Origin: an archaeon
GTDB lineage: Archaea; EX4484-52; WAPT01
Reading direction: 5' to 3'
DNA length: 64,000 nt
NCBI GenBank assembly: GCA_029258795.1
Contig: JAPDKB010000002.1
Span: 50,822-114,821, forward strand
Below, piece after piece: positions 3,641 to 25,173 of the stretch. Numbering within the stretch: position 1 is the stretch's first letter; each line of letters begins with the position of its first letter. The notes under the pieces were generated by a model. That model was not told the DNA's origin, did no database searches, and saw nothing but the letters and a program-made list of their open reading frames with translations. A program made the position numbers and the translations under genes.

Positions 3641-4114
3641 ATGAACATGACTGTGCTGCGAAAAAAAGAAAGAAGCATATGTATATCCCAGAGAGAATGG
3701 GCGGTGATGACTAAAAGGTTGTATGAAGTTGCAGGAAAGGTTTTTGGTAGAGCGCTCTATGAAGGTGGACAGGTAAAAGGAAAGGAATTGGTAAAAAAAT
3801 ATGGCGTAAAGAAAGACGATTTGAAACAATTGCAAGAAGTAATAAAAAAAGAGGGCCTTGCAAGAAATGTGGAGATACATGATAGAGAAATATTGGTTGA
3901 AGGTTCTTTTGAAGGAGAAGCTCTAAAACCATACACAAGGCCTGTGTGTTTTTATCTCGCAGGGATCATTGCAACCATTTATTCAAAGATAGAAAAGGAA
4001 GATGTAAAAGTTGAAGAAACGGACTGCATCTCCACAGGTAAAAAAGTGTGCAGGTTTGTCGTCAGGCCGCTTGAGTGGTATGAAAAGATGAATGAAGTTA
4101 TGGAAATAATTTGA
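3641..4114 (+). CDS. V4R domain protein
   Basis: 157 aa; C-terminal motif CFYLAGIIATIYS...ETDCISTGKKVCRFVV matches the V4R (4-vinyl reductase) Cys pattern. Confidence 0.55.
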   Translation: MNMTVLRKKERSICISQREWAVMTKRLYEVAGKVFGRALYEGGQVKGKELVKKYGVKKDDLKQLQEVIKKEGLARNVEIHDREILVEGSFEGEALKPYTRPVCFYLAGIIATIYSKIEKEDVKVEETDCISTGKKVCRFVVRPLEWYEKMNEVMEII

Positions 4115-4345
4115 AAAAAGTAAGCATGTTTTGGCTTCGTTTCCTTATATAAAGGGACAAGCAATTGCGACTTACTTATTCATATTATATCGTTTGGATA
4201 GAGGATGCTTGGAACTTTTGAAGTGAGAGGCTTTGGGACACCTATGTAAGCCACCTCCAAACATTTTTATTGGTTATAAGCTATATATCTCTATCGAACA
4301 AACACCTATTCGCGGTCTAAGCCGCAGTATAGCATCTTCGTTCAT

Positions 4346-4419
4346 GGGGATAGGGAAAGCTTAATCAAAATGTCGCAGTCTTAAGCTGCATGTCCCAAGT
4401 CAAGCTTTTCCCTATCCCC
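4346..4419. repeat. 17-bp inverted repeat (GGGGATAGGGAAAGCTT / AAGCTTTTCCCTATCCCC) with ~40-bp spacer
   Basis: Direct reading of 4346-4362 against 4402-4419; additional short palindromes nearby (GCGGTCTAAGCCGC); non-coding stretch. Confidence 0.5.
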
Positions 4420-4562
4420 TAAACATTTCCTTTCTTTTAAGCATGAAGTAAATTGCAATGCATAACTTTCTTGCTGCAGCAACTATTGTTTTGTGTGCTT
4501 CATAAATACCCACGGTGAGAGTCTGGGTCTTCTGGTGGCTATGCCCGACCGGGTTTTTTGAT

Positions 4563-5443
4563 ATGAGAGTGTGCATTGTTGGTCCTGCGAATCCTGGCGA
4601 GACAGAGATAGCTCTCACCGAGGCCGCCAAAAAGCGCTATTCCAAGGTATTGTACGCGCCCTTTTCCCGTCTCAGGATAGAAATGGTTGCCGGAGAGCCG
4701 AGAGCCTTCTACAAGGAATAGACCTTTCAGAGTTTGACATTGTCATACCCCGCGTCAGGAGGAGCGACGCGGATTTCGCATACGTCCTCTTAGGGGTTCT
4801 CGAGGACCTGGGAGTCTATTCTCCAATCTCGAGGGACAGCATTCTCTACGGGTTCAACGAGTATCTCATACCTTTCATTCTCGGGAGGGCTGGGGTCGAG
4901 ACCCTCACAACCCTCCTGGGCTCTACCCGGGCCGCCCTCGAGAAATCGATCTCGAGGCTGAGGTTCCCCGTGGTGGTAAAACTCCCCCACAACAAGGACG
5001 GGGCAATGATAGTGGACAGCGAGAAGATCGCCAGGTGCGTGCTCGACACTCTCGAGAGCCTCGGAGAGCCGATAATAGTCCAGGAGATGCTCGAGGGATC
5101 TGAGAGCTTCAGCATCCTCTATATCGGGGAGAGAACATATTGCATAGAAAAGCACAACGGGACCGCGAGAAAGAGAAAGCTTGGCATAGAAGAAAAGCGG
5201 ACCGCGAGGCGCATGACATCCCTCCTGGGAGCGAGCGTGTGTCAGCTGAACGGAATGATCTCTGGAGATAGGCTCGTGGTCATAGACCTCAACATCAACC
5301 CCTGGGTGCACAGACTCCAGGAGCACTTCAAGACCAACCTGTTCGAAAAGATCCTGGACCACCTGGAGAGCGGGTACTCTTCCTCTCGACGGGGCACTAT
5401 CCTAGACAAGTTCCTGAAATGGTTCGAGGAGATGAGGTGGTAG
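4563..5443 (+). pseudogene. RimK-like ATP-grasp ligase interrupted by a frameshift at ~4715
   Basis: N-terminal part MRVCIVGPANPGETEIALTEAAKKRYSKVLYAPFSRLRIEMVAGEPRAFYKE* (ORF 4515..4721) continues in another frame as GIDLSEFDIVIPRVRRSDADFAYV...PVVVKLPHNKDGAMIV (ORF 4571..5443); junction sits at a GG run; region is markedly GC-rich versus flanks. Confidence 0.6.
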
Positions 5444-7826: not shown

Positions 7827-8726
7827 TTATATGTTTTTTGGCGTAGAACCCATTAATTTCTCTATTACTGCCAGAGTTTTCCCTATTAAATTTGTTTTTA
7901 AATTAAGCAAAAATTCGAAAAAGCTTACCCATAAGCTAAGATATTTCTTGCTTATCCCCCTAAACACCCTATACCATGATTTTAAAAAAGAAAATCTATT
8001 CTCTGCATTGTTAATATGAACATTGCCTTCCGCAAACCTTTTCTTGTTATGCGGGATTATTCCATGTTTATAACCTTTTCTCTCTATTTCCTTTGTATAA
8101 ATAGGAAAGTCATCAGTATTTACTATAGAGCCTTTCTCAACATAAGTTTCGAGTAGCTCTAAAACAAGCTCTTCACTTAAGCCTTCCAGAGCTACGAAGA
8201 ATATGCTCTTACCTTTTCTTTCAGTTAAAACTATGACTGGAGTTTTGCCTTCTTTTAGCCCACCTCTACCTTTAATTCCAGTTCCACCCCTCTTCATAGG
8301 CTTTCTAGAAAGCCTTCTATTACCCTTTTCACCAGCTGTTAGATAGGTTTCATCCATCTCAACATTAACTTTTAGCTTGGAAGCTATTTGCCTTGCAAGC
8401 AAATCTTGCTTGATTTTCTTAGCTGCTTTCCAAACATGCTCATATTTTCTACCAAGATCGATTGCTATTGAATAAATGCTTCTTCCAGCCGAATGCTCTT
8501 TTATTATATAAGACCATTCCCAAATCGGTAGCTTTGATTTATCGAATATCGTTTTGGTTCTATTGTTGAAAGTTCTTTTGCATTTTTTGCAAAGATAGCG
8601 TTGAAAGCCTTTCTTATCCTCACCCCTCTTAACAACCTCCTTTGACCCGCAGAAAACGCACCTTACTCCTTCTTTCCATCTAAGCTTTTGGATTATTTCT
8701 ATGCACTTCTCATCACCTGGGGGCAA
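7827..8726 (-). CDS. IS1595-family-like transposase
   Basis: 299 aa; N-terminal zinc ribbon CVFCGS...QRYLCKKCKRTF; DDE motifs VEMDETYLTAGEKG and VNTDDFPIY; C-terminal NAENRFSFLKSWYRVFRGISKKYLSLWVSFFEF typical of IS1595/ISH4. Confidence 0.7.
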   Translation of the reverse strand: MPPGDEKCIEIIQKLRWKEGVRCVFCGSKEVVKRGEDKKGFQRYLCKKCKRTFNNRTKTIFDKSKLPIWEWSYIIKEHSAGRSIYSIAIDLGRKYEHVWKAAKKIKQDLLARQIASKLKVNVEMDETYLTAGEKGNRRLSRKPMKRGGTGIKGRGGLKEGKTPVIVLTERKGKSIFFVALEGLSEELVLELLETYVEKGSIVNTDDFPIYTKEIERKGYKHGIIPHNKKRFAEGNVHINNAENRFSFLKSWYRVFRGISKKYLSLWVSFFEFLLNLKTNLIGKTLAVIEKLMGSTPKNI

Positions 8727-17261: not shown

Positions 17262-17362
17262 AGAACATCACTCCATAAACAACTGACAAACTTTCTTCAT
17301 CCTCCGCAACATTTATATATTTAACTGCGCCGACTTCGTGAAGCAGTATGCCCTATACTCAA

Positions 17363-17710
17363 TCACTTTTTCTTGGAAGAGGTGCTTTTCTTCTTGGTTG
17401 TGCTTTTTGCTTTGGTTGCTGTTTTCTTTGTTTTCTTCTCCCCAACCTCGGCTTCAACCTCCTCCAGCTCGGCTTCTTCTTCCTCCAGCAGCTTGTTCAT
17501 CTTGTAATCATCCCACGCTATCCACGCTACAAGCATGCCCATGAAGAACAGGAATGCTCCGAAGACGCCCTCAAACACTATCTTGAGGCTTTTCCAGAGT
17601 GCCGCTCCAAAGTACGGGATGTTACCGATATACCAATAGATGCCAGCAGCCATCAGCAGGATACCTATGACCATCTTAACTCCATTGTTCATCCGACCAC
17701 CTCTAAGCAT
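17363..17710 (-). CDS. Small membrane protein with acidic linker and lysine-rich tail (hypothetical)
   Basis: 115 aa; two hydrophobic helices, then EEEEAELEEVEAEV, then KKTKKTATKAKSTTKKKSTSSKKK; lies in the gap between L15e and the helicase. Confidence 0.4.
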   Translation of the reverse strand: MLRGGRMNNGVKMVIGILLMAAGIYWYIGNIPYFGAALWKSLKIVFEGVFGAFLFFMGMLVAWIAWDDYKMNKLLEEEEAELEEVEAEVGEKKTKKTATKAKSTTKKKSTSSKKK

Positions 17711-17839
17711 TTTTCCAGCTTTTCTGAAATTAGCGAGGGAAATTTTAAAAATCTACCAACCGCGCTCAAAAGGTCAGAGAAACGGGGAGAGTGTAAGCTG
17801 GGTTTTCCTTTCGGCATCCATGTTCTGCTAACCTTAAAA

Positions 17840-19750
17840 ATGTTCCCTCTGCAGTTTTTCAACATGCGCTTCTTCCCGTTCTCAACGATCAGGCCCGGAC
17901 AAAAGGATATGGTGGAAGCTGTAAGGGATGCGTGCGAGCAGGGGAAAGTTCTGCTGGTGCACGCTCCAACCGGAATAGGAAAGACCGCAGCTTCGCTTGC
18001 TCCTTCCTTGGAATATGCGGTGGAGCATGACAAGAGAGTTGTGTTTTTAACTCCGAGGCACACGCAGCACAAGATAGCTATTGATACAGTCAGAAGGATA
18101 AATGCTCGTGCCAACGTGAATCTGAAAGTTGTGGATGTGATCGGTAAGAAGTGGCTTTGCAGGATGGAGGGAATAGAAAAGCTGAGCTCCGCTGAGTTCA
18201 ACGAGTACTGCAGAGCTCTGAAGAGAAACGAGGCCTGCCCTTTTTACAACAACACGTGGAACAGGAGAAGTGGAGGGCTTACCAAGAAAGCTGAGGCCAT
18301 GATAAAAAGCGTGAGGAGAGATGTACTCTATGCGGAAGAGGTCTATGAACTTTGCGATGACCTGTGCCCCTATGAGATCCTCATGCAGGCAGCCAGAAAT
18401 GCCAACCTGCTGATAGGAGACTATTATCATATCTTCCATGAAAGAATAAGGAAGAGCTTCCTCGGCAGGAGCAACACGAAGCTGGAGGATGTTGTTCTTG
18501 TGGTGGATGAAGCGCACAACTTGCCAGCAAGGATAAGGGAACTCATGTCATCATCAACAAGCCTGCTTGCAATGAAAAGAGCTGAGAGAGAAGCGGAGGT
18601 TTTTGGCTACGACGATCTGGCCGAGATCATAGCCACAATCAGAACGCATGTGAAAAAGAAGCTGAAGGAAAAGCTGGAGAAATCCGGAACACCTCAGCTT
18701 TACGTTGGAAGAAGTTTGCTGCTCGATGCAGCTGAAAATAGTGGTGCTGATCTGGAAGAGCTGCTGGACTACATGGAGGAGGTGGCTGACGAGGTCAGGG
18801 AGGAGAAAAAGCGCTCATATGTTGGCGGGTTTGCATCATTTTTGAGGAGGTGGAAGGATGAAGCTCCAATCTACTGCAGAATAGCGGAGAAGAAGCTGAC
18901 CAGAAAGGGCAGAACCAACTATGTTCTCACGCTTCACTGCCTTGACCCCGCTCCCATTGCCTCGGAGGTGTTTAAGGAAGCGCATGCCACAATTCTCATG
19001 TCCGGCACCTTGCTCCCGCTTGAAATGTATGCAGATGTGCTCGGCGCAACGGAACTTGATGCAGTCAGATTGAAACTGAGGTCGCACTTTCCGCGCAGCA
19101 ACAAGCTTGAGATCGTGGTGGATGATGTTACAACCCAGTACAACAGAAGGGAGGAAAGGAACTTCGAGAAAATAGCGAAATACATCATTTCAGTAGTTAA
19201 TGCCACTCCTGACAACGTTTGCGTTTTCTTCCCGAGCTATGAGCTCCGCGACACCATCGCAAGAATGGTTGAGCTCTCGCTTGAAAAGAAGGTGCTTCTG
19301 GAGAAGCAGGGGATGAGCAAGAGCAGGAAAGCGCAGCTATTCCATGAGTTTGTAAGCGCAGCTGAGCAGGGAGGAGCATGCCTGCTTGGTGTGATGGGTG
19401 GCAGCTTCGATCAGGGTGTTGACTTTCCGAACAACGTGGTGAAGTGTGTTATCGTGGTGGGGCTGCCACTCGAAAAACCGGATTTGCTGACCGAAGCGAT
19501 GATAAACTACTATGATGCTAAATTTGGCAAGGGATGGGATTATGCCTACACCTATCCCGCAGTCATAAAAGCGCAGCAAGCAGCTGGAAGAGCCATAAGG
19601 AGTGAGAAGGATAAAGCGGTTGTGGTTTATATGGACAAGCGTTATCTCTGGGCAAACTACAGAAAGTGCTTCCCTGCTGAAACAAGATTCATAGTGTCAA
19701 GAAATCCAGCAGAGCTCATAAAAAGGTTCTTCTCGGATAGCAAGAAGTGA
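17840..19750 (+). CDS. XPD/Rad3-like (DinG family) Fe-S helicase
   Basis: Walker A VHAPTGIGKTAAS, DEAH box VVDEAHNL, four-Cys cluster (CRMEG...EYC...CPFY...CDDLCP); start placed at first ATG after the upstream minus-strand gene (17840 or 17864). Confidence 0.8.
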   Translation: MFPLQFFNMRFFPFSTIRPGQKDMVEAVRDACEQGKVLLVHAPTGIGKTAASLAPSLEYAVEHDKRVVFLTPRHTQHKIAIDTVRRINARANVNLKVVDVIGKKWLCRMEGIEKLSSAEFNEYCRALKRNEACPFYNNTWNRRSGGLTKKAEAMIKSVRRDVLYAEEVYELCDDLCPYEILMQAARNANLLIGDYYHIFHERIRKSFLGRSNTKLEDVVLVVDEAHNLPARIRELMSSSTSLLAMKRAEREAEVFGYDDLAEIIATIRTHVKKKLKEKLEKSGTPQLYVGRSLLLDAAENSGADLEELLDYMEEVADEVREEKKRSYVGGFASFLRRWKDEAPIYCRIAEKKLTRKGRTNYVLTLHCLDPAPIASEVFKEAHATILMSGTLLPLEMYADVLGATELDAVRLKLRSHFPRSNKLEIVVDDVTTQYNRREERNFEKIAKYIISVVNATPDNVCVFFPSYELRDTIARMVELSLEKKVLLEKQGMSKSRKAQLFHEFVSAAEQGGACLLGVMGGSFDQGVDFPNNVVKCVIVVGLPLEKPDLLTEAMINYYDAKFGKGWDYAYTYPAVIKAQQAAGRAIRSEKDKAVVVYMDKRYLWANYRKCFPAETRFIVSRNPAELIKRFFSDSKK

Positions 19751-20063: not shown

Positions 20064-20201
20064 GAAAATGAAGTAAAAATCCGCAAGTTTTAAATTTTCA
20101 ACAGATATGTTTGGAATAACAGAGTTTTCTTCGCCATCTCCTACCCAAATTCTCTCGCGTTTTCAAAAATTTTGATGGACGTTATGAATAACCTTTTTAA
20201 A

Positions 20202-20223
20202 ATTATGAACATATGTTCATAAT
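20202..20223. promoter_or_regulatory. Perfect 22-bp palindrome ATTATGAACATATGTTCATAAT abutting the operon start codon (candidate operator)
   Basis: Direct reading; extra half-site TTATGAA at ~20182-20188; A/T-rich TATA-like TTTTTAAAA just upstream; ATG of the DUF134 gene at 20224. Confidence 0.5.
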
Positions 20224-20646
20224 ATGCCCCGCAGGAAGAAGTGCAGGATGATAGGAGAGATGCCAGGAGTGCTGTTCTTCAAGCCACGTGGCATTCCAAC
20301 GAGCGATTTGGAAATTGTGGAACTTAGCATGGATGAACTTGAGGCCATCAAGCTGAAGGACATGGTGGGGCTGGATCAGGAGGAATGCGCAGAAAAGATG
20401 GGCATCTCAAGACCAACATTTCATCGCATACTCACAAAAGCGAGGAGGAAAATTGCCGATGCGATGATCAACGGCAAGGCAATAAAGCTGGATGAAAATG
20501 TGAAGCTCATCAACGCGAGAAGATTCAGATGCAGAAACTGTATGCACGAATTCACCATACCGCACGGCAGGAGAGTCGTGGATGTTACTTGTCCATCCTG
20601 CGGGAGCGGCGAGTTTGAATCACTTCACAAAATTGTATGGGGGTGA
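20224..20646 (+). CDS. DUF134-family predicted DNA-binding protein
   Basis: 140 aa; HTH-like core LDQEECAEKMGISRPTFHRILTKARRKIADAM plus C-terminal CRNC...CPSCG zinc ribbon; first gene of the NifX/MinD cluster. Confidence 0.7.
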   Translation: MPRRKKCRMIGEMPGVLFFKPRGIPTSDLEIVELSMDELEAIKLKDMVGLDQEECAEKMGISRPTFHRILTKARRKIADAMINGKAIKLDENVKLINARRFRCRNCMHEFTIPHGRRVVDVTCPSCGSGEFESLHKIVWG

Positions 20647-20652
20647 TGTTTT

Positions 20653-20877
20653 ATGCCTTGGGGGAGAGGTCTTGGAAGAATGCGCGGATGGAGATGTTTT
20701 GGTAGAGGATGGAATTTCGCTTTCTGGAGGGGGAGGGGTAGAGGAATGAGAGCTGGACCTCCGGCTAAATGTGTTTGTCCTAACTGCGGATATGAGGTGG
20801 TGCATGTTAGGGGCAGGCCATGTTCATCAGAAATCTGTCCCAAGTGCGGCAGCAGGATGGTTGGGAAGTGGGAGTAA
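20653..20877 (+). CDS. Small RG-rich zinc-ribbon protein
   Basis: 74 aa; RG/GRG repeats (GRGLGRMRGWRCFGRGW...RGRGRG) followed by CPNCG...CPKCG. Confidence 0.5.
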   Translation: MPWGRGLGRMRGWRCFGRGWNFAFWRGRGRGMRAGPPAKCVCPNCGYEVVHVRGRPCSSEICPKCGSRMVGKWE

Positions 20878-20896: not shown

Positions 20897-21316
20897 ATGA
20901 AAATCTGTGTTCCAGCAACAGGAGAGGGTCTTGAGGTAAGGATATGTCCTGTATTTGGCAGAGCACCTTACTTTGTTTTTGTGGAGGTGGATGATGGAGG
21001 AAACATAACCTCATGGAACGCGGAAAAGAACCCAGCCGAGTATGCGAGGGGTGGTGCGGGCATAATGGCATCCCAGAAGGTGGTGGATGCTGGCTGTGAT
21101 GCACTCATAACCATTTCAATCGGGCCTAAAGCCTATGATGTGCTGAGAGCATCGGGAGTGAAGGTTTATGCCGGGGTGGAGGCATCGGTAAAGGATAATG
21201 TTGAAAAGCTGGTTAGAAACGAGCTGAGCGAGATGGTTGAAGCTGTGCCTGGAAGGTTCGGAAGAGGATGGAGAGGAGTAAGGGGCTTTGGAGCAGGGAG
21301 AGGGTGGAGATGGTGA
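20897..21316 (+). CDS. NifX/NafY-like (dinitrogenase FeMo-cofactor-binding fold) protein with RG-rich tail
   Basis: 139 aa; MKICVPATGEGLEVRICPVFGRAPYFVFVEVDD...GCDALITISIGPKAYDVL resembles the Nitro_FeMo-Co domain; C-terminal GRGWRGVRGFGAGRGWRW. Confidence 0.65.
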   Translation: MKICVPATGEGLEVRICPVFGRAPYFVFVEVDDGGNITSWNAEKNPAEYARGGAGIMASQKVVDAGCDALITISIGPKAYDVLRASGVKVYAGVEASVKDNVEKLVRNELSEMVEAVPGRFGRGWRGVRGFGAGRGWRW

Positions 21317-22569
21317 AGAACAGACACGCTGCTTTACGTGAGGGAATTAGGGCTATGCGTAACGTTTCCGTAGCTCTATTGCTGCTTGCTGCCCTGAAAT
21401 TTGCAGTTGGAATCATTGCCAACGCTCCCGTGCTTGTAGCGGACTCGCTCCATACCCTTGTGGATCTTTCCGCGGTGCTTGCCGTGCTTTTAGGCATAAA
21501 GCTTGCTACAAGACCTCCCTCGGAAAGGTTTCCGTACGGTTATTACAAGGCCGAATCTCTGGCAGCGCTTTTCGTTTCGGTAATCATAATGTACGGCGCG
21601 TACGAACTGGTTGGTGGGGCATTGCACAGGTGGAAGGAAGGCGCAGCCATCAACATGGTTCCGCTGGCTTCGGTTGTTGCAGCTATATCTCTGGTGCTCT
21701 CTTATATCCTTTCCAAGTATGAGGAAAGGGCAGCATTGCTGACGGGATCGGATGCCATCTCTGCCACCTCAAAAGAAGCATTGCTTGACGTCTTTTCTTC
21801 GGGCATGGTTCTGGTTTCCATCTTGCTCTCGTCAGCAGGACTTGCGTTCGTTGAAAGCGCAGTTACCATCCTCATCAGCCTGCTGGTTTTCAAGCTCGCT
21901 TTTGAAAATGTGTATTCAAGCATCATGGCTTTGATGGATGTCAGCCCTAGCAGGAAGATGGAGCAAAATGTAAGAAAAGTTCTGGAGAGCATGCCCGCCA
22001 TAGTTGGTTATAGGGACATGCGTCTCAGAAAGGCGGGCCCGTTCATATTTGGGGAGGTAACCATAATTACGGATCCAAAGCTTGATGTCGAAAAAGCCCA
22101 CAGCATTGCTGACGAGGTTGAGAGGAAAGTTATGGAAGAGGTGCCGCAGATAGAGCATCTTGTGGTGCATCTCGAGCCGTATGAGAAAGAGAAGTTGAGA
22201 GTTATCGTGCCCGTTACAGGGAATGAGGGAATGAATTCAAAACTTGCAGAACACTTCGGAAGGGCTGAAGGGTTCCTCATCTTTGAGGTTGAAAAAAAGA
22301 AGGGGAAAATGAAATTGCTTGATTTTGTCAAGAACTTGCAAAAACAAAAGAAGGTGAGAGCGGGATTAGCTGCCGCAAAACAGCTGCTGAAAAATGTCGA
22401 GTTTGATGCAGTCATAACTAAAGAGATGGGAGAGATAGCGTTTCATGTCCTGAAGGATGAGGGTAAGGATGTTTACAGGGCAAAAGGCTCTACCGCTGAA
22501 GAGGCTGTGAAGCTTTTCATGAAGGATGAGCTTGAAAAACTGGATACGCCCACAAAGGAAAAGGAGTGA
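21310..22569 (+). CDS. Cation diffusion facilitator (CDF) transporter fused to a C-terminal NifX-like domain
   Basis: CDF signature ADSLHTLVDLSAVL...RPPSERFPYGYYKAESLAALF with multiple TM helices, then LRVIVPVTGNEGMNSKLAEHFGRAEGFLIFEVE (NifX-like); ATG at 21310 overlaps the upstream stop (ATGGTGA). Confidence 0.7.
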   Translation: MVKNRHAALREGIRAMRNVSVALLLLAALKFAVGIIANAPVLVADSLHTLVDLSAVLAVLLGIKLATRPPSERFPYGYYKAESLAALFVSVIIMYGAYELVGGALHRWKEGAAINMVPLASVVAAISLVLSYILSKYEERAALLTGSDAISATSKEALLDVFSSGMVLVSILLSSAGLAFVESAVTILISLLVFKLAFENVYSSIMALMDVSPSRKMEQNVRKVLESMPAIVGYRDMRLRKAGPFIFGEVTIITDPKLDVEKAHSIADEVERKVMEEVPQIEHLVVHLEPYEKEKLRVIVPVTGNEGMNSKLAEHFGRAEGFLIFEVEKKKGKMKLLDFVKNLQKQKKVRAGLAAAKQLLKNVEFDAVITKEMGEIAFHVLKDEGKDVYRAKGSTAEEAVKLFMKDELEKLDTPTKEKE

Positions 22570-22573
22570 GGTG

Positions 22574-22918
22574 ATGCGAATGAAAATTGCCATACCGCTT
22601 GAGGAAAATAAGGGGGTTGATTCAAGAGTTGCGGAGCACTTCGGAAGGGTGAGATTCTTTCTGATATATGATACGGAAAGCGGAAGTTTTGAGGTGGTTG
22701 ATTTTGAGAAGGAGGAGGAAGGAGTCTGCAGCCCTGCGAGCTTTCTCATAGAGAGAGGTGTGCATGCCGTTTATGTGCTTGGAATGGGTTACAAAGCGAG
22801 ATGCATGCTTGAGGAAGCAGGCGTGCAGGTTCTCACAGGAGAGTACACGATAGCGAGAGACATCCTCAAAAATCTCGACCGCTTGAATAAATTTGAGGGA
22901 GGGTGTACTCATCACTGA
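22574..22918 (+). CDS. NifX/NafY-like domain protein
   Basis: MKIAIPLEENKGVDSRVAEHFGRVRFFLIYD...GVHAVYVLGMGYKARCMLEEAGVQV; RBS-like AAGGAGTGAGGTG upstream. Confidence 0.6.
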   Translation: MRMKIAIPLEENKGVDSRVAEHFGRVRFFLIYDTESGSFEVVDFEKEEEGVCSPASFLIERGVHAVYVLGMGYKARCMLEEAGVQVLTGEYTIARDILKNLDRLNKFEGGCTHH

Positions 22919-22942
22919 AGTGGAAAGTGCGGTGTGTGTTCG

Positions 22943-23815
22943 ATGCCCTTTACGATATGTGTTGTTTCAGGTAAGGGTGGTGTTGGCAAGACAACGGTAG
23001 CCGCAGCTCTCTCCAAAATATTGGCAAGAAAGTACAGGGTACTTGCGGTTGATGCGGATGTTGAATGCCCAAACCTCCACATCCTTTTGAAGGCAGGAGA
23101 GCTTGAGAAGGTGAGGGACGTTTGCACCACGCTTCCCGAGATAGATGAGAAGCGATGCATCCAATGCGGCAGGTGTGTGGAAGTGTGCAGAAAAAACGCG
23201 CTTTTCAGGAGAAAAGAAGGAGTTCCTCTCCTAATAGAAGAGCAGTGCAACGGCTGCAAGGCATGCTTCATTGTGTGTCCCACCAAAGCTATAGGGGAGA
23301 AAAAAGTTGTGATGGGAACGATAAGGAAGCGCGTGATCGAAAATGACAGGCTGGTTTTGCTATCCGGAGAGTTAGAGGTGGGACAGGAGGAGCCGACACC
23401 TGTTGTCAGAGAGCTGATGAGGGAGGTTGAAGCTGTAAAGCGTGATTTCGATTTTGTGGTGGTGGATGCAGCTCCCGGCGTGAAGTGCAACGTGGCTGCA
23501 GCTCTCGAGGGATGCGATCACACCTTGCTTGTTGTGGAGCCGACACCTTTCGGTGTTGAAGATGCGAAGCGAGTTGCGGAGCTAATCAAAATTATAGGTG
23601 TGGATGCTCATGTTGTCATCAACAGGTCTGTAAAGCGGGAGGAAGATGAGAAGAGAGTAATGGGTAGCGTACCATTTTCTGTAATCTGTACTTTACCCTA
23701 CTCCACGGAAGCCGTTAGACTCTATGTGGCAGGAGATGTGGAAAAGATGGAAGGTATAGGGGATATCGCAAAAGCTGTGGAGAAGCTTGCGGAGCTTTCG
23801 GGTGAGGAGGGATGA
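22943..23815 (+). CDS. MinD/ParA-superfamily P-loop ATPase with inserted 4Fe-4S ferredoxin domain
   Basis: Deviant Walker A VVSGKGGVGKTT; two Cys clusters CIQCGRCVEVC and CNGCKACFIVCP. Confidence 0.75.
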   Translation: MPFTICVVSGKGGVGKTTVAAALSKILARKYRVLAVDADVECPNLHILLKAGELEKVRDVCTTLPEIDEKRCIQCGRCVEVCRKNALFRRKEGVPLLIEEQCNGCKACFIVCPTKAIGEKKVVMGTIRKRVIENDRLVLLSGELEVGQEEPTPVVRELMREVEAVKRDFDFVVVDAAPGVKCNVAAALEGCDHTLLVVEPTPFGVEDAKRVAELIKIIGVDAHVVINRSVKREEDEKRVMGSVPFSVICTLPYSTEAVRLYVAGDVEKMEGIGDIAKAVEKLAELSGEEG

Positions 23816-24693
23816 AGAAAGTTGTGGTTGCATCCGGAAAGGGAGGGACGGGCAAAACAACCATCGCGTCAAGCCTCGCGGTGACGGCAGCAAAGCATTG
23901 TAAAGTGGTGGTGGCTGACTGTGATGTTGACGCTCCCAACTTGAAGCTGATTCTGGGGAAAGATAATATGGATGGCTTTGATTTTGTGGAGGTCAGCACG
24001 TCGGAGAAGGCATGTGTGGGTGAGCAGCGCTGCATCAACTGCGGGAGGTGTGTTGAAGCGTGTCAGTTTAATGCCATGCAGTGGGACAACAAGAAAAAGC
24101 TACCGAAGGTCAAGAAGATTTACTGCGAGGGTTGCGGAGCATGCCAGCTTGTGTGTCCAGCTGGAGCCATAGAAATAAAGGCTGTTAGAAACGGTAGAGT
24201 GGGGTGGGGAAAGCTAAGCCCAAATCTCTGGCTGGTTTTCGGTGAGCTTTACGTGGGAGAGTCAGCAAGTGGTAAAATAGTGGTGGATGTGAAGAAGAAA
24301 GCTCTCGAGCTTGCAAGAAATATAAATGCTGACCTGTTCATTGTTGATGCTTCCGCAGGTATAGGATGTCCCGTGATAGCATCCATGGCGTTCATGGATC
24401 ACGCTCTCATCGTTGCGGAGCCCACACCCTCAAGCGTCAGCGACATGGAAAGGATGCTCATGCTGGCGGAACACTTCAGGATGGAAAAGAGCGTGGTGAT
24501 AAATAAAGCCGGGCTGAGCGAGAGATGGCGAAAGGAAATAGAGACCATGGCATCGAGATATGATGCGGAAATCATAGCCACAATTCCGCACGACATGAGA
24601 GTTATGAATTCTGTATCAAGGCTCGTTCCTCTTGTTGAATATGAAGCCTCTTATCTTCCTTTATTCGAAAAAATTCTGACAAGATTACTCTGA
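23812..24693 (+). CDS. MinD/ParA-superfamily P-loop ATPase with ferredoxin domain (paralog)
   Basis: VASGKGGTGKTT; CINCGRCVEAC and CEGCGACQLVCP; start overlaps upstream stop (ATGA). Confidence 0.75.
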   Translation: MKKVVVASGKGGTGKTTIASSLAVTAAKHCKVVVADCDVDAPNLKLILGKDNMDGFDFVEVSTSEKACVGEQRCINCGRCVEACQFNAMQWDNKKKLPKVKKIYCEGCGACQLVCPAGAIEIKAVRNGRVGWGKLSPNLWLVFGELYVGESASGKIVVDVKKKALELARNINADLFIVDASAGIGCPVIASMAFMDHALIVAEPTPSSVSDMERMLMLAEHFRMEKSVVINKAGLSERWRKEIETMASRYDAEIIATIPHDMRVMNSVSRLVPLVEYEASYLPLFEKILTRLL

Positions 24694-25173
24694 AAAGAAC
24701 AGCTTCCTGTAATTCTCTGCTAGCTTAACAACCACAACCTTCCCTTCTTTCTCCCTGCTCACCACCCCTCTCTTCTCCAGCCTCTGCACAGCCCTGAAAA
24801 CGCGCAGCTTATCAAGCCTTGCCTGCTTTGCTATCCTTGCCTGTGTACTCTCTCCACCGCTTTCAAGCAAGATCTTCATAACTCTGGCCTCATCATCTCT
24901 GAGCAAGCTAAGCAATAGCTTCTTTTGCTGCGTTTCATTTCTGAAGCGGGGAGAAAGAAGGTAGTAGGTCGTGGTGCCTATGAAAAGGCCGAGCACCCCT
25001 ATGAAAGGAATAAAGAGGTAAACGGGAATGGCACAGGCGCAAATATCTCCTTCGTACACATGTTCCTGCACGTAAAGGGAAGAGAGAGCAACTATAAAAA
25101 CAAAGATGGACAGAATAAGCATTGCAAGTATGATTTTTTTATGGAGAGTTTTGAATGATAACGAGCTGTCCAT
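24685..25173 (-). CDS. Membrane-anchored winged-helix transcriptional regulator (hypothetical)
   Basis: 162 aa; two N-terminal TM helices, then an HTH-like segment ARVMKILLESGGESTQARIAKQARLDKLRVFRAVQRLEKRGVV. Confidence 0.5.
   Translation of the reverse strand: MDSSLSFKTLHKKIILAMLILSIFVFIVALSSLYVQEHVYEGDICACAIPVYLFIPFIGVLGLFIGTTTYYLLSPRFRNETQQKKLLLSLLRDDEARVMKILLESGGESTQARIAKQARLDKLRVFRAVQRLEKRGVVSREKEGKVVVVKLAENYRKLFFSE

Follow-up and report, generated by a model that had tools for sequence, protein, structure and literature searches.

The archaeal repressors MDR1, LrpA, and Phr bind operators that lie downstream of or overlap the TATA box and cover the transcription start, blocking recruitment of RNA polymerase; repressors of this type are often autoregulated and encoded first in their operon. 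IscR, an autoregulated Fe-S regulator and Cys-liganded repressor, likewise has its gene at the head of an operon for Fe-S biogenesis. In B. subtilis DeoR, the DNA-binding domain binds as a dimer to the palindrome TTGAACAAAATTCAA, with TTGAACA half-sites and the two domains about one turn apart; R34 and R39 contact bases, and R39 contacts G4 of TTGAACA (PMC11229326). The orange-protein (ORP) complex of Desulfovibrio, whose composition is described for D. vulgaris, has a NifX-like and MinD-ferredoxin core and is specific to anaerobes (PMC6345978). Its regulator OrpR is a sigma-54 enhancer-binding activator that senses redox state through a [4Fe-4S] PAS sensor and, according to its authors, is seemingly restricted to the delta-proteobacterial species that harbour Orp (PMC8359166). 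In P. furiosus, the thioferrate Fe-S storage protein IssA carries a cationic, aromatic, and Gly-rich tail (PMC5524996).

The locus described here lies in a 64-kb window (the whole stretch of DNA analysed, 64,000 nt), for which the nearest genomes are metagenome-assembled genomes (MAGs) of DPANN ('Nanobdellati') archaea. Sequence inspection and a palindrome check confirmed the perfect 22-bp palindrome claimed in the first-pass annotation: ATTATGAACATATGTTCATAAT, at positions 20202-20223, reads ATTATGAACA-TA-TGTTCATAAT, and the DUF134 ORF (20224-20646) follows it directly, its ATG starting with no base in between. We refer to this element, which carries no strand assignment, as the DUF134 box, a candidate operator on the evidence of its sequence and conservation. 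Our reading, to which we assign a probability of about 0.75, is that the DUF134 protein encoded immediately downstream uses the palindrome as its operator, and that a proposed dimer of this protein would repress its own gene together with the metal/iron-sulfur operon.

The DUF134/UPF0251 gene (20224-20646, plus strand; 140 aa), the candidate autoregulator, matches Pfam PF02001 at 88.8 bits against a cut-off of 27. It is followed on the same strand by operon gene 2, which encodes a small Arg/Gly-rich protein of 74 aa with a Cys4 zinc ribbon (20653-20877), homologs of which are found after the motif in many loci. Next come an IssA-like, NifX-like protein (20897-21316; Pfam PF02579); a CDF transporter that carries a fused NifX-like domain at its C-terminus (21268-22569; PF01545, PF16916, and PF02579), assigned to the CDF family by NCBIfam with matches of the FieF/MamB/MamM type; and a second NifX-like protein (22526-22918; Pfam PF02579). 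The operon closes with a MinD/ParA-type P-loop ATPase that contains an inserted 2x[4Fe-4S] ferredoxin domain and resembles Orp3/Orp4 (22934-23815; Pfam) and a second MinD/ParA-ferredoxin ATPase as its final gene (23812-24693; Pfam). In all, Pfam places PF02579 three times in the operon and PF01656 with Fer4 domains twice. The CDF-NifX fusion recurs in the orthologous operons L081, L082, and L084; in the window its ORF overlaps the preceding gene by 49 nt, so that translation probably begins at a Met further downstream, at around 21310. Gene order is identical in L001, L002, L081, L082, and L084. A membrane-anchored TrmB/MarR-like winged-helix gene (24685-25173, minus strand) is convergent with the end of the operon.

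Judged at the family level, the operon contains the genes that define an ORP cluster, that is, NifX-like proteins and two MinD-ATPases each with two [4Fe-4S] ferredoxin motifs. The tail of the NifX-like protein at 20897-21316, GRFGRGWRGVRGFGAGRGWRW, is cationic, aromatic, and Gly-rich and shares the features described for IssA; by its sequence, this DPANN protein may serve in storage as IssA does.

The 22-mer at 20202-20223 is the longest perfect palindrome of the 64-kb window, and a perfect palindrome of 22 bp was reached in 3 of 300 first-order Markov random 64-kb sequences (~1%). By both palindrome length and shuffle tests, its dyad symmetry exceeds chance. Searching for other matches to the palindrome with three or fewer mismatches recovered none, either within the 64 kb or among 100 shuffles. 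A weight matrix derived from the sites of other genomes (foreign DUF134-locus sites) and then run over the window scored this site at 32.4 bits; the runner-up position (44387) reached 10.2 bits, which is at chance level, leaving no second strong site within the 64-kb window. The bare half-site TTATGAAC occurs seven times in the window, twice within the palindrome, against 2.5 expected, and is not clearly enriched. Further regulators and sites may exist elsewhere in the genome, beyond the 64-kb window.

Immediately upstream, a TATA-like box, TTTTTAAA, occupies positions 20194-20201 on the plus strand, in agreement with the A/T tract previously noted between an upstream half-site and the palindrome. 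Its midpoint falls about 26 nt before the A of the DUF134 ATG, and the palindrome occupies the whole interval. Most genes in the window lack a Shine-Dalgarno sequence and are preceded by a TATA-like box, 27-35 nt upstream of the ATG, such that leaderless transcripts appear to be the rule here. The position of the box before DUF134 likewise implies a leaderless transcript, with a predicted start at or next to 20224.

Comparison with five distinct orthologous DPANN operons, represented by L001 and L002 (81% protein identity), L081 (68%), L082/L083 (64%), and L084/L085 (61%), indicates that this arrangement is conserved. Far from being absent upstream of orthologous operons, the palindrome and TATA box are kept in all five; the A/T box and dyad are equally spaced in each (the box itself in L001, L002, L081, L082, and L084), and the dyad ends 0-1 nt before the start codon. 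Across the alignment, 19 of the 22 palindrome columns are invariant and three vary, and the invariant block TT-TGAACATATGT-CATAA is conserved to a greater degree than the third positions of adjacent codons. TATA box and palindrome together form the only conserved non-coding block in the five orthologues; further upstream of the box the sequences have diverged, and the upstream genes differ as well.

A Pacearchaeota relative, the MAG L011, has a degenerate dyad in front of DUF134. The same locus carries a perfect variant of the motif, ATTATGAATATATATTCATAAT, before DUF5320 and ZIP importer genes located upstream of DUF134 (3891-5058), and ATTATGAATATATATTCATAAT is also found in L046 before a DUF5320-like gene that precedes DUF134. 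By the gene content of L011, the motif is linked not just to the CDF family of the window operon, whose members are usually exporters, but also to a ZIP importer.

The upstream half-site itself did not fare as well. The heptamer TTATGAA is indeed present at 20182-20188, 21 bp upstream of the left-arm heptamer, but it is missing from all of the orthologues (L001, L002, L081, L082, and L084) and, read as a full site, matches at 12 of 22 positions. We therefore rejected it as a working site; it is probably a chance occurrence.

Conservation of this kind also bears on whether the palindrome acts as a protein-binding site at all. It might instead be a nucleic-acid structure (a cruciform, RNA hairpin, or terminator) or a functionless, AT-rich chance palindrome: the sequence can fold into a 9-bp hairpin of -6.7 kcal/mol (z = -3.4 against shuffles), and palindromes of 22 bp do arise by chance in the ~1% of random 64-kb sequences of like composition noted above. 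However, what is conserved across the orthologues, and across two domains, is the sequence beyond its symmetry. A TATA box at about -26 would place the palindrome upstream of the transcript, and the palindrome is not followed by a T-run, does not lie at a gene end, and has an AT-rich stem at a gene 5' end. Querying Rfam with the palindrome returned no family match, and the RNA element or terminator was rejected as a candidate, the hairpin being modest and AT-rich. We regard structure or chance as very improbable, and as already effectively refuted by the cross-genome conservation.

The operator reading extends beyond the archaea. A scan based on protein similarity showed that bacterial DUF134 loci share the dyad, with the consensus ATTATGrrCATATGyyCATAAT. 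In 82 DUF134 loci (905 kb), 81 sites were recovered at 18/22 or better, against about two in Markov shuffles, and 47 at 19/22 or better, against none; when the consensus was relaxed slightly, 59 of 83 protein-found DUF134 loci contained a site matching at 19 or more of the 22 positions, versus 2 of 83 shuffled. The bacterial sites lie directly upstream of DUF134 or head NifX-MinD-MinD-...-DUF134 clusters, and there are often two of them, 33-44 bp apart. Such tandem full sites occur in bacteria and in L165 and do not occur in the window.

The reverse test, a metagenome scan by the DNA pattern TTATGRRCATATGYYCATAA alone, recovered at least 120 loci spanning a GC content of 0.28-0.70. Among the 120 metagenome matches listed, 82 have a DUF134 start within 350 nt of the site and reading away from it, with a median gap of about 19 nt in the 53 of the listed loci that were measured; 10 further loci contain NifX, MinD, or small-Zn genes. 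In 26 of the 120 listed, 10 of them shorter than 2.5 kb, the analysis detected none of the cluster genes. Several long loci (e.g., L124 and L103) contain the site and DUF134 without NifX/MinD or other cluster genes, indicating that DUF134 is the constant partner of the site. DUF134 is the only constant neighbour of the site; the dyad is conserved with DUF134 in both archaea and bacteria, and the site is real.

Genes other than DUF134 found directly downstream of sites encode ARMT1/DUF89-like, NifU_N, CGGC, C_GCAxxG_C_C, ZIP, and DUF5320 proteins and a pyridine-nucleotide disulfide oxidoreductase, a set with a metal, Fe-S, or redox flavour throughout. The ARMT1-like/DUF89 gene (MKTYLDCIPCFVRQ...) directly follows the palindrome in L114, L119, L144, L149, and L161, among the metagenome matches listed, and in L114, L144, and L149 it has DUF5320-like, NifX, or MinD genes further downstream; it is likely an additional regulon member. 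In the Firmicutes, a Fur-family gene (PF01475) directly precedes or adjoins DUF134 in L028 (5559-6017), L043, L044, L050, and about 20 other loci, and the clostridial Fur-DUF134 clusters carry a local operator variant, ATAATTAGCAAATGCCAATAAT / ATTATTGGCATTTGACAATAAT.

The DUF134 protein is our candidate for the binder. The family invariants P14, P21, E38, E40, A56, M59, S62, T65, F66, K76, and A78 are all present in the window protein. An AlphaFold2 model (pLDDT 81.9) places helices at residues 36-48, 52-59, and 63-83, followed by a beta strand and a C-terminal zinc ribbon of the form CxxC-N16-CxxC (Cys103, 106, 123, and 126); some family members lack this Cys4 ribbon. A structure search found no solved DUF134 structure. 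Matches of DUF134 to sigma-70 region 4 and other helix-turn-helix models are sub-threshold or borderline. The helix-turn-helix can be superposed at 0.6-1.0 A on the DNA-binding domain of B. subtilis DeoR and on region 4 of ECF sigma factors, and in a search of the PDB with the DUF134 family profile, the sole significant helix-turn-helix match was DeoR (7bhy/8r7y; E 1.6e-5). The two helix-turn-helix regions share 38% identity with an rmsd of 0.7 A over 40 residues. Residues R63 and R68 of DUF134 (SRPTFHR) align with the base-contacting R34 and R39 of DeoR, and the DUF134 half-site includes TGAACA, as does the TTGAACA half-site of DeoR.

Two other structural relationships were considered and rejected. 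A likeness to the MCM N-terminal domain in a whole-model Foldseek search has a TM score of about 0.2 and is meaningless, since only the helix-turn-helix matches. DUF134, at 140 aa, also lacks the C-terminal sugar-phosphate-binding double Rossmann domain of the SorC/DeoR family; its homology to DeoR is limited to the DNA-binding domain, and without the effector domain it does not belong to the SorC family.

The aligned arginine covaries with the DNA. Where the R68 position is Arg, G occupies position 6 of the half-site in 36 of 44 arms; where it is Asn or Leu, as in Clostridia, T does so in 40 of 44 arms (Fisher p 3e-14, a value uncorrected for phylogeny, the Clostridia having both the Asn/Leu helix and the T-type site). 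Beside G-type sites in the metagenomes, DUF134 has Arg in 60 of 61 cases among the matches listed. Constant linkage, the DeoR-like helix-turn-helix, and this Arg/guanine covariation together support DUF134 as the binder of the site, and the earlier proposal that the protein is a candidate autoregulator draws support from the same comparative evidence.

These data also weigh on the identity of the binder, which could differ from DUF134 if the operator is genuine and DUF134 is merely regulated through it. Candidates include the TrmB/MarR-like protein (24685-25173), a Fur-family protein, an ArsR/SmtB-type repressor, or Rex. A TrmB-like winged-helix gene flanks the operon in the window, L001, L002, and L081; however, it is absent from L082, L084, and all bacterial and metagenome loci with the site, and, being conserved only in the three closest relatives, it was rejected as the binder. 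About 25 Firmicutes loci have a Fur-family gene next to DUF134, and in Clostridia the Fur-family protein could be the binder; nevertheless, tblastn found no Fur homolog in the 64-kb window or in the DPANN or Chloroflexota loci, and just 1 of the 120 metagenome matches listed has a Fur-like gene without DUF134. A Fur-family binder was accordingly rejected, the gene being confined to clusters of the Firmicutes type. CDF genes are classically controlled by ArsR/SmtB repressors through dyads of the TGAA..TTCA type, and the operon does include a CDF transporter gene, but no operon protein matches the ArsR family, and the ArsR hit of the TrmB-like neighbour, at 19.3 bits, falls below the cut-off of 55. 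The 7-6-7 layout of the palindrome is also that of Rex boxes (TTGTGAA-N6-TTCACAA), although the conserved motif core here (TTAT, CATATG) differs from the Rex core. Set against the adjacency of DUF134 in the metagenomes (the 82 of 120 matches listed) and the recognition-helix covariation, a different binder is unlikely.

Taking DUF134 as the binder, the position of the sites suggests how it would act. By sequence, the window site sits between the TATA-like box and the ATG, at which we infer transcription to begin, and bacterial sites overlap or abut TTGACA and TATAAT-like hexamers, so that they coincide with the predicted -35, -10, or start site or come just after the -10. In one bacterial architecture (e.g., L086 and L122), a predicted TTGACA-N17-TATAAT promoter has its -10 element overlapping the left arm, and the start region is covered; in a second (e.g., L103, L104, L126, and L142), TTGACA abuts the site, the site forms the spacer, and CATAAT in the right arm would serve as the -10 element. 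Overlap with predicted core promoter elements in both archaeal and bacterial loci points to steric repression, and with DUF134 as the first or closest gene, the protein would act as a negative autoregulator. Along with the apparent prevalence of leaderless transcripts in the window, this predicted overlap in both domains lends support to the first-pass suggestion that the palindrome is positioned as a repressor operator on a leaderless transcript.

In the proposed mechanism, a DUF134 dimer would place one helix-turn-helix on each half-site; the guanines G6 and G6' of the palindrome are 11 bp apart, about one turn of DNA. The archaeal site would take up the 22 bp that separate the TATA box from the leaderless mRNA start, and protein bound there would block RNA polymerase recruitment. 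This block would repress the DUF134 gene together with the co-transcribed genes for the NifX/IssA-like proteins, the CDF-NifX fusion, and the two ATPases of the MinD-ferredoxin type. A metal, Fe-S, or redox signal, perhaps sensed through the Cys4 ribbon or NifX-like partners, would bring about release.

It is conceivable that DUF134 binds the palindrome as an activator, a dual regulator, or a promoter-recognition factor resembling sigma region 4. Its helix-turn-helix fold is most similar to ECF sigma region 4, a reader of -35 elements, and in many bacterial loci TTGACA abuts or falls inside the site. Yet both site and protein also occur in DPANN archaea, whose RNA polymerase uses no sigma factors. 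The archaeal activators known so far have their sites upstream of the BRE/TATA elements, whereas the DPANN site, at -22 to -1, is where the polymerase sits; the bacterial sites, for their part, cover the predicted -10 element, start site, or spacer, which are typical repressor positions. We therefore consider a role other than repression improbable.

Turning again to DUF134 as a repressor, the signal to which it would respond is a matter of speculation. The Cys4 ribbon, the gene content, and a single DUF134-NifX fusion suggest a metal, Fe-S, or redox cue. This natural fusion of DUF134 to a NifX-like domain (PF02579) is the protein P0120 of Carboxydothermus islandicus, and it suggests that NifX-like proteins may be the ligand-sensing partner of DUF134. 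On a broader and more tentative level, DUF134/UPF0251 could be the missing dedicated regulator of ORP/IssA clusters outside the delta-proteobacteria: a repressor that senses Fe-S or redox state through its Cys4 ribbon or NifX-like partners and that has been exchanged, along with its 22-bp operator, between Bacteria and Archaea, so that one protein-site pair would serve sigma-70 as well as TATA/TFB promoters. We hold this extended proposal to be possible rather than probable.

Several features of the window were observed apart from the operon. The XPD/Rad3-type helicase ORF at 17348-19750 encodes 800 aa, as compared with 626 aa in its L081 orthologue, and its first ~170 residues look like a spurious extension; on the opposite strand, a Lys-rich membrane-like ORF (17363-17710) may be the real gene there. 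The second-longest perfect palindrome of the window, AGGCTTTCTAGAAAGCCT (18 bp; 8298-8315), lies in a low-GC stretch at 6-12 kb (GC 0.33-0.36). GC content is lowest in the segment 52001-54000 (0.315 versus ~0.45 elsewhere), which may be foreign or intergenic-rich DNA.

Searches of the literature for DUF134, UPF0251, COG1342, PF02001, or the operator strings found no functional work in the papers searched, though Fievet et al. 2011, on conservation of the orp cluster, might mention neighbours of the DUF134 type. The regulator family, its motif, and the conservation of the pair across domains thus appear to be undescribed, while a palindromic autoregulatory operator as such is classical. DUF134/UPF0251/COG1342 is widespread in anaerobic bacteria and archaea, and the family gains here a concrete predicted function, that of an autoregulator that recognises a 22-bp operator sequence-specifically and would contact bases through an arginine. 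These results also provide a pointer to the regulator of NifX-like/MinD-ferredoxin clusters of the ORP/IssA type in lineages without OrpR and may offer a way into how anaerobes, uncultivated DPANN archaea included, regulate the storage and trafficking of iron-sulfur. A near-identical operator in two domains would represent a regulator-operator module working on two basal transcription machineries.

In its predicted mode of action, the DUF134 system resembles the archaeal repressors MDR1, LrpA, and Phr, which differ from it by family (DtxR, Lrp/AsnC, and ArsR-like winged helix); we know of no operator of that type reported to be shared with bacteria at a sequence identity comparable to that seen here. 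In gene arrangement it resembles IscR, as a small Cys-containing DNA-binding protein encoded first in an Fe-S-related operon with an operator on its promoter, though IscR is a winged-helix protein of the Rrf2 family and some DUF134 members lack the Cys4 ribbon.

With OrpR it shares the role of a dedicated local regulator of an anaerobe-specific cluster that encodes NifX-like ('Di-Nase') proteins and MinD-type ATPases with two [4Fe-4S] ferredoxin motifs (PMC6345978, PMC8359166). Unlike OrpR, the predicted DUF134 regulator is a small helix-turn-helix repressor acting at sigma-70-type or archaeal TATA promoters, and the window operon, as compared with the ORP cluster, has an additional CDF transporter and an IssA-like tail. 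DeoR, the SorC-family regulator of the dra-nupC-pdp operator, remains the closest solved relative of the DUF134 helix-turn-helix, and it is a repressor with a promoter-overlapping operator, as is proposed for DUF134. DeoR alone has a large sugar-phosphate-binding effector domain and binds a 39-bp operator as a tetramer, whereas DUF134 has a short conserved N-terminal segment and often a Cys4 zinc ribbon. The guanines are spaced 10 bp apart in the DeoR site and 11 bp apart in the DUF134 box, and the recognition helix (helix 3) is longer in DUF134 than in DeoR, so that the geometry of binding may differ between the two.
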